From contig CAYMTD010000001.1 of the NCBI GenBank assembly GCA_964393245.1, positions 1 through 47,378 on the forward strand: a stretch of DNA of 47,378 nt, written 5' to 3'. Every line of letters starts with the position of its first letter. Position 1 is the first letter of the stretch. This document shows, piece after piece, positions 208-3,452 of this stretch. The stretch is from an uncultured Syntrophaceae bacterium. Its GTDB lineage: Bacteria > Desulfobacterota > BSN033 > UBA1163. The notes under the pieces are model-generated. The model saw only the letters and a list, made by a program, of their open reading frames with translations. It made no database searches and was not told the origin of the DNA. The position numbers and the translations under genes were made by a program.

Positions 208-235
208 TTGACTTTAACTATGAATTGGCTATAAT
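208..235 (+). promoter_or_regulatory. sigma70-like promoter of the AOR1 leader
   Basis: TTGACT (208-213), 16-nt spacer, TATAAT (230-235). About 215 nt upstream of the AOR1 ATG. Confidence 0.55.
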
Positions 236-261
236 AGAAACGAAAAAAGGGGGTGTCACGA

Positions 262-351
262 AAATACCTCCGACCTATTTCCTCCCTTTGGGAGGGATAG
301 GCGTTAGGGTGCGAGGAGCAATTCTCACGCCTGCCTTGTCTGCAAAGGAGG
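262..351 (+). promoter_or_regulatory. candidate Moco/Tuco (molybdenum/tungsten cofactor) riboswitch aptamer
   Basis: CCUCCGA (267-273) can pair with AAAGGAGG (344-351) to close a multi-stem junction. Internal hairpins at 274-301 and about 300-331, and GCCUG at 329-333. Lies directly upstream of a W/Mo-pterin enzyme gene. Consensus recalled from memory, not scanned. Confidence 0.5.
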
Positions 352-393
352 CAATGTCGGCCCTAAAAAGTTGGACATTGCCCTTTGTTTTTT
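350..393 (+). terminator. intrinsic terminator / riboswitch expression platform
   Basis: 9-bp stem GGCAATGTC (350-358) / GACATTGCC (374-382) followed by CTTTGTTTTTT. Overlaps the 3' strand of the putative aptamer P1. Confidence 0.6.
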
Positions 394-2252: not shown

Positions 2253-2546
2253 ATGCAGGTTACTGTTAAATTACACGCCTCCCTCAGACCGTATGGAAGG
2301 AGCGATTCCAACGACGGCCTCTTTCCACTTGAGGCAGCCGAGAAAGCAACCGTGCATGAGGTCATACGGGAACTGGGAATTCCTCCTGAAAAAGTGAGGA
2401 TGATTTTACTCAATGGGAGGGGTGTTGATTTTGATAGCATTTTATCCAACGGCGACCGGATTGCTATTTTTCCGCCGGAAATGGCGTTTAATATGTATGT
2501 CGCCATCTCCTTCCGGAGAGATTTAAATCATCAGAAAAAATCTTGA
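2253..2546 (+). CDS. beta-grasp (MoaD/ThiS/Ub-like) small protein lacking a C-terminal diglycine
   Basis: 97 aa. Pattern ...ATVHEVIRELGIPPEKVRMILLNGRGVDFDSILSNGDRIAIFPPE.. is typical of MoaD/ThiS or Ub-Mut7C-type beta-grasp domains. The tail continues about 20 aa with no GG. Confidence 0.65.
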   Translation: MQVTVKLHASLRPYGRSDSNDGLFPLEAAEKATVHEVIRELGIPPEKVRMILLNGRGVDFDSILSNGDRIAIFPPEMAFNMYVAISFRRDLNHQKKS

Positions 2547-2558
2547 GTGTGAGGGGAA

Positions 2559-3020
2559 TTGGTAACGGTCTATGTTAAGTTGACGGGAAGTTTTCTCCCA
2601 TATGGTTCTCCAGAACAGCCGGGGCCCATTGAAATTACCCTCAAGAATGGAGCCACGATCCAGGAGGCCATTCAAGCGTTGGGGATACCCAAGGAAAGAG
2701 TCAAGCTGATCTTTGTTAATCACAGGGGGGCCTTTTTGGATCAGCTGCTCAAAGATGGAGACAGGGTTTCCCTTTTTCCGGCAGAATATCCGGTTTTCGC
2801 TGATTGGAAGGGATCTATTCTTAGGAAAGCACATGACGATGAGATGATCGAGGAGGGGAGAATGAAAAAGTGGAAGTGCTCAATTTGCGACTATATCTAT
2901 GACCCATCAAAGGGAGATCCTGATAACGGAGTGAAACCTGGAACGGCCTTTGAGGCAATTCCAGATGACTGGGTTTGCCCCACTTGCGGTGCCGGAAAGG
3001 ATATGTTTGAACCCCAGTAG
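2559..3020 (+). CDS. beta-grasp domain protein reading in frame into a complete rubredoxin (fusion or read-through)
   Basis: TTG start. Residues 1-80 are a paralogue of 2253..2546. The C-terminal 52 aa, [15 protein letters not shown]...[18 protein letters not shown], is a canonical rubredoxin (CxxC...CPxCG). An internal SD GAGGAGGGG (2850-2858) plus in-frame ATG at 2862 could give a free 52-aa rubredoxin. Confidence 0.7.
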
Positions 3021-3134
3021 CACTTAGAAGGAAGAATGCTGAGGTTGTTAAGCCCAGTCCAATTTGGAGATCTCCCACCAATTACAGGTGCGTGTACAAA
3101 GATATCCTGCAAGGCAAACTATAAAATTCCAGAT

Positions 3135-3333
3135 GGATGGTCTCCTAAAAAGTCCCTAACGTAGTCGTTGCGAGCGAAGCGAAGCAACCTCGTATTTTGT
3201 AAGTGCTTGACTTCACGGGACTGCGGAACCTGTTCCGAGCTTCGCGAGGAATCTCCGGGTTTGCTTCGGCTGCGCCTCGCAACCGCTATGCTCCTCGCAA
3301 TGACATGTGGTTGGACTCTTTACGAATTCATTA
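3135..3333. repeat. MITE-like repeat, diverged member of the TGATG...CATCA family
   Basis: Left end GGATGGTCTCCTAAAAAGTC and right end GACTCTTTACGAATTCATTA resemble the termini of the copies at 10586, 32602 and 45344. Internal hairpin GTCGTTGCGAG...CTCGCAATGAC. Confidence 0.6.
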
Positions 3334-3452
3334 AATTTGAGAATTCAAAATTCTATTTTTTCTATCCCTCAATTCTTCAATTCAGCAAACCGAACTTCTC
3401 CTTTACGAAGACCTGATAATGGGATAATCGTTATTCAAAGGGAGGGGATGGA

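Follow-up and report, generated by a model that had tools for sequence, protein, structure and literature searches.

Why should a tungsten enzyme be encoded beside two beta-grasp proteins that lack the diglycine tail of sulfur carriers, and why should one of these proteins read without a stop into a rubredoxin? This question is raised by a locus in the 47,378-nucleotide stretch of DNA that we analysed (hereafter the window; positions 1 to 47,378 of the forward strand of contig CAYMTD010000001.1, assembly GCA_964393245.1), which comes from an uncultured Syntrophaceae bacterium whose genome is a fragmented metagenome-assembled genome (MAG) of 664 contigs and 70.5% completeness. In this locus, the gene for AOR1, a member of the tungsten-type aldehyde:ferredoxin oxidoreductase (AOR) family, is followed by two open reading frames (ORFs). 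ORF1 encodes the beta-grasp protein BG1, and ORF2 encodes a second beta-grasp domain, BG2, that continues in frame into the rubredoxin (Table 1). A preliminary description of the sequence had offered three explanations for ORF2, namely a genuine fusion, a recent loss of a stop codon, or two products from one frame. The results presented here argue for the first and, as a likely addition, for the third.

The fusion is ancestral in its clade, and its covalent link is dispensable

The reading of ORF2 as a beta-grasp domain that runs without a stop into a complete 52-aa rubredoxin was confirmed. Residues 102-153 matched both the Pfam rubredoxin family PF00301 (E = 4e-24, 88.4 bits) and the NCBIfam equivalog RubredRD (100.4 bits against a cut-off of 90) above their cut-offs. 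The cysteines C107, C110, C140 and C143 were invariant in the homologue alignment, and Foldseek aligned the domain with the rubredoxins of C. pasteurianum, Desulfovibrio and Pyrococcus at 63-69% identity and a root-mean-square deviation of 0.4-0.6 Å. Only two rubredoxins were present in the source genome, as represented by the 70%-complete MAG: the fused one and one on another contig (C151).

We searched 5.8 billion proteins, clustered at 90% identity. The fused architecture was found in 87 clusters (130-159 aa, 68-90% identical to ORF2), and 24 further clusters held an unfused beta-grasp protein of ~90 aa ending in ...SILRK, that is, exactly at K90. A stop codon between the domains in orthologues had been named beforehand as an observation that would speak against the fusion. 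Such a stop was literally present in 24 of the 111 clusters, which shows the link to be dispensable and not the fusion to be spurious. Junctions were then classified in 41 orthologous loci collected as DNA. The frame was fused in 31 loci; six carried an in-frame TAA at codon 91 only (GCA in the window, 2829-2831), one carried this TAA together with a 1-nt deletion (-1), one had a +1 frameshift, and in one (L003) the rubredoxin was wholly absent. Apart from that codon, the TAA alleles had the same linker DNA as their fused relatives, and in all split loci the rubredoxin remained intact as a separate gene.

More than 30 assemblies, obtained independently from different samples, had the same open frame, with GGA, GGG, GAA, AAA or GCA as the sense codon at position 91; it would take two substitutions to turn the GCA of the window into TAA. 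A tree of the beta-grasp DNA had fused forms in all its clades, to either side of the midpoint root, and the broken forms were nested within fused clades; this makes the fusion ancestral in the group and the stop alleles derived. The proposed recent stop-codon loss is therefore not upheld. Breaks have arisen at least three times independently: as the TAA, as the +1 frameshift (L115 and the P0108/P0110 type), and in P0111, where one A was probably lost from the A-run before the ATG, as read from the protein end (EEGK*) and not confirmed as DNA. Since both halves were kept after these breaks, the covalent link is dispensable. Taken together, these comparisons of genes and proteins showed a genuine fusion that is ancestral in the clade and maintained in frame and length, but whose link can be given up; the dominance of the 87 fused clusters, their spread over all clades of the tree and the fixed linker length described below bear out the fusion that had been suspected from one sequence.

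The fusion was carried by five species-representative genomes, all of them uncultured Thermodesulfobacteriota/Syntrophia-type MAGs. A profile search built on 34 fused sequences returned no fused relatives from outside this clade, and in an exhaustive hidden Markov model (HMM) search, no fusion other than the representative of the clade itself stood among the best 150 of 2166 hits. Flavin-reductase-rubredoxin fusions were among the matches of the homologue searches, and two candidates for independent beta-grasp fusions, from a Dehalococcoidia (L018) and a Methanocella (L019) genome, were rejected as one such flavin-reductase-rubredoxin fusion and a stand-alone rubredoxin, respectively. Another fusion event in the same module is found at L204 (7013-7654, G303:C21), where a 213-aa ORF joins a GG-type carrier, its end decayed to FPRSPGAER, in frame with a tail-type BG1-like domain.

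The linker is fixed in length and contains a conserved start for the rubredoxin

The preliminary description gave ORF2 a single linker of 25 aa. The length of this span was right, but it consists of two parts, a conserved BG2 tail of 14 residues (77-90) and a variable linker of 11 residues (91-101). Between BG2 and the rubredoxin, all fused and TAA-only loci collected as DNA had a segment of exactly 33 nt. The control spacers of the same loci ranged from 68 to 325 nt (AOR-BG1) and from -4 to 348 nt (BG1-BG2), with repeat-like insertions. One longer linker was seen (P0084), and its additional 6 nt kept the frame. Residues 91-97 were almost neutral, with an entropy at codon positions 1 and 2 close to that at position 3. 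In the AlphaFold2 (AF2) model of ORF2 (predicted template modelling score 0.52), residues 81-100 were disordered, with a predicted local distance difference test score (pLDDT) below 50, between two confident domains. Fixed length, near-neutral sequence and disorder together suggest a flexible tether that is constrained in length and free in sequence, as a real fusion would need. In six loci (L005, L009, L085, L086, L094 and L099), the BG1-BG2 spacer, normally 12-13 nt, contained insertions of 110-350 nt, some of them bearing GC-rich palindromes, which would uncouple the translation of BG2 from that of BG1.

The rubredoxin also has a Shine-Dalgarno (SD) sequence of its own: the motif GAGGAGGGG and the in-frame ATG at 2862 are present in the window, as had been pointed out. 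Across homologues, the ATG was invariant and the nucleotides before it followed the pattern nnG-GAG-GGn, that is, GGAGG(G). The third position of codon 98 was an invariant G while the residue varied among E, A, G, K and R. Codon 99 was GAG in 27 cases and GGG in two, and never GAA, whereas GAG made up 47% of the Glu codons elsewhere in the same sequences. Only 15 of the 146 third positions were invariant, and two adjacent ones lay within the SD motif; by conservation, the SD hexamer ranked 13th of 454 windows, although it is situated in the most variable part of the protein. The nucleotides of the SD were thus kept while the residues changed, indicating that the RNA and not the protein is conserved here. 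Internal initiation is therefore likely to yield a free 52-aa rubredoxin in addition to the fusion, and the idea of two products from one frame, with SD and ATG conserved at synonymous or free sites, gains a probable basis. BG2 itself starts at a TTG with a G-rich SD that ends only 2 nt upstream (poor spacing). With so weak a start, the free rubredoxin may exceed the fusion.

BG1 and BG2 are beta-grasp proteins with conserved tails in place of Gly-Gly

Both domains scored above the Pfam gathering cut-offs for two beta-grasp families, Ub-Mut7C (PF14451; BG1 50.5 bits, BG2 36.0 bits, cut-off 23) and ThiS (PF02597; BG1 39.5 bits, BG2 27.8 bits, cut-off 22.5), and BLASTP aligned them with each other at 43% identity over 74 residues. 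The AF2 model of BG1 (pLDDT 86.6) showed a beta-grasp fold followed by a helix at residues 75-96, and Foldseek matched the beta-grasp model to MoaD and SAMP1 at template modelling scores of 0.6-0.7. The earlier view of two tandem paralogous beta-grasp genes after AOR1 holds, and a failure of the N-terminal domains to match any beta-grasp family, which had been named as grounds for rejecting it, was not seen.

The fold and sequence signature of MoaD/ThiS are present in BG1 and BG2, but the C-terminal Gly-Gly is missing from both. At this site, BG1 reads FPPEMAFNMY... (FPPEMAFNMYVAISFRRDL, with ORF1 reading ...FPPEMAFNMYVAISFRRDLNHQKKS), and its C-terminal extension FPPEMAFNMYVA[IL]SFRRD[LF] was invariant across 26 homologues. 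BG2 carries the tail EYPVFADW[EK]GS[IV]L.. instead, with E76, Y77, P78, F80 and W83 invariant across 34 homologues; from about residue 81, this tail was predicted to be disordered in isolation (AF2). A third family member in the source genome, on contig C155, ends in FPPVAGG* (...GDVVSIFPPVAGG*). Because no glycine follows the FPP/FPA motif of BG1 or BG2, proteolytic trimming could not expose a Gly-Gly, and without a C-terminal glycine for adenylation or thiocarboxylation the two proteins must presumably act by non-covalent binding. The doubt cast earlier on a sulfur-carrier role was thus well founded. All sequence matches in the PDB stopped at the FPP motif, with no solved homologue of the tails among them. 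Pfam detected no Mut7-C RNase domain in BG1, which stands alone, or in ORF2, which runs into the rubredoxin. No gene for MoeB/ThiF (E1-like), MoaE or JAMM proteins was recognised in the gene tables and ORFs read at the orthologous loci, a reading that did not extend to the whole genome.

BG2 was 41-43% identical to BG1-type proteins and 30-39% identical to GG-type carriers, a difference that is weakly resolved in proteins this short. This greater likeness suggests that BG2 is a clade-specific duplicate of BG1 with a different conserved tail and a rubredoxin, and an origin of BG2 as a decayed GG-type carrier was rejected on the same comparison. The C155 gene (4444-4668; L167 1498-1737) encodes the only canonical GG-ending member of the source genome (79 aa, ...FPPVAGG). 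It lies downstream of a gene that looks, by its sequence, like a SelD/AIR-synthase-type gene and of a 145-aa ORF, which may be the context of a sulfur or selenium carrier.

BG1-type proteins accompany one AOR subfamily across the phylum

Of the 150 top-ranking hits (out of 2166) in the exhaustive HMM search, 101 representatives were proteins of 76-81 aa ending in FPP[VLI]AGG, and about 20 further representatives (50% identity) had the GG-less tail FPP[EQ][LM][AS][FY]N.[YF]VA. In a search of 400 genomes from the phylum, wider loci were retrieved, 28 of them outside the fusion clade. In 23 of these 28 loci, from many families, the tail-type gene came directly after an AOR1-type gene, whose product was 57-67% identical to AOR1 and of the same 576-aa length. 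A GG-ending carrier often stood beside the BG1-type gene in these other families, in either order. The source genome contains about ten AOR-family genes, and BG genes stand beside AOR1 only, which favours a dedicated partner over a general role in cofactor synthesis. Sequence and gene neighbourhood thus mark BG1 as the characteristic partner of a single AOR subfamily, not as a protein of cofactor synthesis in general.

Two further associations were considered and dismissed. A 726-aa frame in G110, apparently an AOR-beta-grasp fusion, was a high-GC artefact; the real genes there encode MoeB, a 4Fe-4S protein, an AorC-like flavoprotein and a GG-type beta-grasp protein. Rubredoxin is not a general partner of AOR1 and BG1, being found near only one of the 28 wider loci. 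In that locus, which comes from another family, a rubredoxin-like ORF of its own (67 aa; L220 7939-8139, G354:C1), whose first knuckle has the unusual form Cx4C (CQGNNC...CPSCG), is located ~400 nt downstream of an AOR1-BG1-GG-carrier cluster, the sole association outside the fusion clade. In four other loci (L177, L179, L192 and L193), which represent one group of families, a gene of ~260-300 aa that looks by sequence like a short-chain dehydrogenase lies between the AOR1-type gene and the BG1-type/GG-type pair.

The genes form one operon with a predicted tungsten-cofactor riboswitch

The features of the locus are listed in Table 1. They showed one operon of a promoter, a Moco/Tuco (molybdenum/tungsten cofactor) riboswitch without stem P3, AOR1, BG1 and BG2-rubredoxin, joined in this clade by a gene for a nitroreductase-family flavoprotein. 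The order AOR1-BG1-BG2, with spacers of 72 and 12 nt, was the same in 41 loci.

Table 1. Features of the AOR1 locus, in window coordinates
Feature	Position	Strand	Basis or remark
Sigma-70-like promoter, TTGACT-16-TATAAT	208..235	+	11/12 consensus positions; consensus match only
Moco/Tuco riboswitch aptamer, P3 stem deleted	256..366	+	Rfam RF01055, 53.4 bits against a gathering score of 36, E = 3.7e-11
Intrinsic terminator, hairpin and U-run	343..393	+	Overlaps 3' strand of aptamer stem P1
AOR1, tungsten-type AOR family, 576 aa	450..2180	+	Pfam AFOR_N, AFOR_C
BG1 (ORF1), GG-less MoaD/ThiS-like beta-grasp, 97 aa, with C-terminal helical tail FPPEMAFNMYVAISFRRDL	2253..2546	+	Pfam, AF2, Foldseek
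ORF2 (BG2 and rubredoxin), 153 aa, TTG start	2559..3020	+	Open frame 12 nt past BG1 stop
BG2 beta-grasp core, ORF2 residues 1-76	2559..2786	+	Pfam Ub-Mut7C, ThiS; AF2 pLDDT ~85-90
BG2 tail replacing the Gly-Gly end, residues 77-90	2787..2828	+	Conserved in homologues
Variable linker, 11 codons (residues 91-101), also translation-initiation region of the rubredoxin	2829..2861	+	33 nt
Internal Shine-Dalgarno GGAGGG	2852..2857	+	4 nt before the ATG at 2862
Rubredoxin domain/gene, 52 aa, CSIC...CPTCG, own ATG	2862..3020	+	PF00301, RubredRD, Foldseek
Enlarged spacer with dispersed-repeat insertion	3021..3452	.	Partial copies elsewhere in genome
Nitroreductase-family FMN (flavin mononucleotide) flavoprotein, 183 aa	3453..4004	+	Pfam Nitroreductase, E = 1.9e-32

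In the alignment to the covariance model RF01055, which the leader matched above the gathering threshold, P3 had no counterpart. Such P3-less Moco/Tuco variants are associated with tungsten-cofactor genes (Regulski et al. 2008, PMC2408646). Folding of 256-396 placed CAAAGGAGGCAAUGUCGG in the terminator stem (minimum free energy -52.6 kcal/mol, z = -3.2), and within this segment the 5' arm of the terminator overlapped the 3' strand of P1. The leader is thus predicted to act as an ON switch, in which binding of the cofactor would prevent termination; its ligand specificity is putative. A predicted ON switch would suit users of the cofactor better than its makers. The riboswitch was not retained as a fixed feature of the module, since six close orthologous loci with shorter leaders (~200 nt in L001 and L004) scored below the gathering threshold. 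In L200, two tandem riboswitch copies precede an AOR1-type gene.

AOR1 matched AFOR_N (E = 3.9e-62) and AFOR_C (E = 3.5e-80), with the AFOR_C match stopping at model position 346 of 385, and its best match among solved structures was 9mqx_D (E = 5e-102), ahead of 8c0z_A (3e-82) and 1aor_A (6e-82). The alignment to solved AORs ended at residue 557 and was followed by 19 residues, compared with ~50 in canonical AORs. A C-terminus shorter by ~30 residues than in canonical members places AOR1 in a short-C-terminus subfamily. On a 183-kb contig, one orthologous locus (L004 2868-4597) has its AOR gene divided between two called ORFs (358 and 214 aa), owing either to a frameshift in a pseudogene or to an indel error of the assembly.

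The nitroreductase-family gene came next after BG2-rubredoxin in ~34 of 38 loci, usually ~30 nt past the stop, and was absent from the 28 rubredoxin-less AOR1-BG1 loci. Rubredoxin and flavoprotein are found together in this clade only, which suggests that they arrived together. The gap between the two genes is 436 nt in the window, compared with ~30 nt in most orthologous loci, and contigs C146 and C147 carry partial copies of the dispersed repeat within it, with 84-86% identity over 80-90 nt. Loci that had lost the nitroreductase gene tended to have a split or lost rubredoxin (Fisher p = 0.004), a value on which we do not rely because the loci are not phylogenetically independent.

Relation to known systems

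Two parts of this arrangement are known already: MoaD-like accessory genes beside tungsten AORs, and rubredoxin fusions in other contexts. Natural rubredoxin fusions include flavorubredoxin NorV, high-molecular-weight rubredoxin (a flavin reductase-rubredoxin), rubrerythrin and the two-domain AlkG. Like these, BG2-rubredoxin has a canonical Fe(Cys)4 rubredoxin covalently tethered to a redox partner or adaptor. In the known fusions, however, the partner domain is itself a redox enzyme, whereas in BG2-rubredoxin it is a cofactor-less beta-grasp domain, and an SD and start codon lie inside the ORF. A review by Burroughs et al. (2007) reportedly covers beta-grasp subunits and adaptors without catalytic function, for example toluene monooxygenase TmoB. 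TmoB, listed as a standalone ubiquitin-like family (Iyer et al. 2006, PMC1779556), resembles BG1 and BG2 in using the ubiquitin fold without Gly-Gly chemistry as a small structural or assembly subunit, a role that for BG1 and BG2 we infer. It has no detectable sequence relationship to them, and BG1 and BG2 derive from the MoaD/ThiS lineage.

The arrangement of genes has a close counterpart in Aromatoleum aromaticum, where two MoaD-like genes, aorD and aorE (protein accessions WP_041646405 and WP_041646407), end the operon aorABCDE (Arndt et al. 2019, PMC6365974; Winiarska et al. 2022, PMC9295118). In both operons, two tandem MoaD-like genes lie directly downstream of a tungsten AOR, a likeness of gene arrangement and not a comparison of sequences. 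AorD and AorE are accessory and not catalytic, and unlike BG2 they carry no rubredoxin. The A. aromaticum enzyme is a three-subunit, NAD-linked AorABC, whereas AOR1 has no AorA or AorC gene alongside. Iyer, Burroughs and Aravind (2006, PMC1779556) described AOR-linked MoaD genes, including an AOR-MoaD fusion in Azoarcus, and proposed a role in tungsten-cofactor synthesis; in Thermococcus kodakarensis, TK1065/UblC is an AOR-adjacent ubiquitin-like protein of the GG type that contributes to tungsten-enzyme activity (PMC11323500). These genes share with BG1 and BG2 a strict adjacency to AOR and a sporadic distribution. Their products end in Gly-Gly and are actual or proposed thiocarboxylate carriers or modifiers, whereas BG1 and BG2 carry conserved C-terminal extensions instead, and no MoeB or MoaE gene was seen in the AOR1 operon.

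In the literature, we found no description of a beta-grasp-rubredoxin fusion, of its internal start, or of a GG-less subfamily whose tail-bearing members go with a short AOR subfamily. A 2025 review of tungsten enzymes mentions neither MoaD nor rubredoxin, and in databases these proteins bear automated names only, such as 'rubredoxin/RatB antitoxin'.

A proposed mechanism and its alternatives

We propose that BG1 and BG2 are non-covalent adaptors of AOR1, that the rubredoxin is tethered near the iron-sulfur cluster of the enzyme and passes electrons to the flavoprotein, and that additional free rubredoxin is made; we put the chances of this composite scheme at about even. BG1 and BG2 would dock on AOR1 through their conserved tails, and BG2 would hold the rubredoxin on a leash of ~20 residues near the [4Fe-4S] cluster. 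The rubredoxin would carry electrons from aldehyde oxidation to the co-inherited nitroreductase-type flavoprotein, a chain that would make the oxidation essentially irreversible, and so detoxifying, in place of the usual ferredoxin-coupled one. Every ribosome translating BG2, whose translation is probably coupled to termination of BG1, would make the 17-kDa fusion, and ribosomes that start internally, from the strong SD and the ATG, would supply a free 6-kDa rubredoxin as well, probably in excess. The AOR-MoaD fusions, which imply physical association (Iyer et al. 2006, PMC1779556), count in favour of adaptors. A rubredoxin serving as a putative tethered electron acceptor of the tungsten enzyme, an idea raised in the preliminary description, is plausible. 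In a more general form, which we hold only tentatively and would not expect to prove right, the GG-less beta-grasp domain would be a modular docking plug for one AOR subfamily, with BG1-type proteins as obligate small partners of the short-C-terminus enzymes and the duplicate BG2 tethering the rubredoxin; AOR1 would then be the first rubredoxin-coupled AOR, and the SD would set the ratio of tethered to free carrier.

Several points weigh against this scheme of adaptors and a tethered carrier. Rubredoxin potentials are ~0 mV, far above those of the acid/aldehyde couple and of typical AOR acceptors, and we know of no AOR that uses rubredoxin. Rubredoxin occurs near one of the 28 modules outside the clade and was lost within it in L003, so it is not essential to the AOR1-BG module. 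Internal initiation is predicted from conservation. A random stretch of 11 codons stays open ~59% of the time, and a purine-rich spacer may do so by chance; the case for selection on the fusion therefore depends on the absence of indels and on long persistence. Lastly, AorD and AorE were absent from the purified A. aromaticum enzyme, and their co-expression raised its specific activity (from 4.5 to 16 U/mg), which favours a role in maturation (PMC6365974, PMC9295118). In such an account, the chief competitor of our scheme, which seems to us possible but rather unlikely, BG1 and BG2 would stand outside the working enzyme and resemble AorD and AorE in building, delivering or inserting the tungsten cofactor, while rubredoxin and flavoprotein would handle electrons during cofactor or cluster assembly, or repair or protect an oxygen-sensitive AOR1. 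The tandem position of aorD and aorE after the aor genes, the proposed part of AOR-adjacent MoaD genes in cofactor synthesis and the lowered AOR and FOR activities on deletion of the GG-type TK1065 all agree with maturation, as does the true GG-type carrier found beside the BG1-type gene in other families. But thiocarboxylation is impossible for BG1 and BG2, so their role would have to differ from that of MoaD. Moreover, only one of the ~10 AOR paralogues in the genome is accompanied, and an operon predicted to be ON when the cofactor is present would be unusual for cofactor-synthesis genes.

The remaining alternatives concern the frame and the fold. The rubredoxin might be an independent gene, serving for example in electron transfer under oxidative stress together with the nitroreductase-type protein, and be read in frame by chance in a nearly neutral fashion, in which case the fused polypeptide would have no function of its own. 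The conserved SD and ATG, the retention of both halves after at least three splits, the nearly neutral linker, the high chance that 11 purine-rich codons stay open and the lack of packing between the two domains in the AF2 model would all fit. Against this stand the invariance of the 33-nt spacer over a synonymous-saturating divergence in which intergenic spacers vary by hundreds of nucleotides, the frame kept by the longer P0084 linker (+6 nt) and the dominance of the fused state (87 against 24 clusters) in all deep clades; under neutrality, frameshift splits, which are hard to reverse, should also have piled up. We consider near-neutral read-through improbable. The fragmentation of the MAG, and the TAA-91 alleles with otherwise identical linker DNA among the closest relatives, could raise the suspicion that the open frame is an artefact of assembly or sequencing, or that this lineage lost a stop codon very recently. 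With two substitutions separating GCA from TAA, sense codons at position 91 in more than 30 independent assemblies and fused forms on both sides of the midpoint root, this is very improbable. Finally, that Ub-Mut7C was the best-scoring Pfam family and that JGI names many homologues 'RatB antitoxin' or 'ThiS' might point to cryptic ubiquitin-like modifiers or sulfur carriers activated by trimming, or to RNA-binding proteins of the RnfH/RatB or Mut7-C type. Yet no cut beyond the FPP/FPA motif would expose Gly-Gly, the Mut7-C RNase domain is absent, and the matches to Ub-RnfH, at 12.3 and 19.7 bits, fall short of its cut-off of 23.7 bits. No MoeB/ThiF or JAMM gene was present in the loci whose gene tables or ORFs were read, and the strict linkage is to AOR genes. 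Such functions are hardly credible for BG1 and BG2.

Significance

For bacterial tungsten AORs, little is known of the physiological electron partners or of the factors that assemble the enzymes, and the MoaD-like genes beside them have been called a 'putative maturation factor' since 2006. The AOR1 locus amounts to a natural experiment on this point: MoaD chemistry is not possible in BG1 and BG2, the tails that replace it are conserved, the association is with one AOR subfamily, and in one clade a rubredoxin is attached. It is also a well-sampled case of a gene fusion whose halves are sometimes joined and sometimes separate, with an internal ribosome-binding site preserved in either state. 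Three ideas thereby become testable, namely that the beta-grasp proteins bind the enzyme, that an AOR may use rubredoxin, and that one ORF may be kept to supply a carrier in both tethered and free form.

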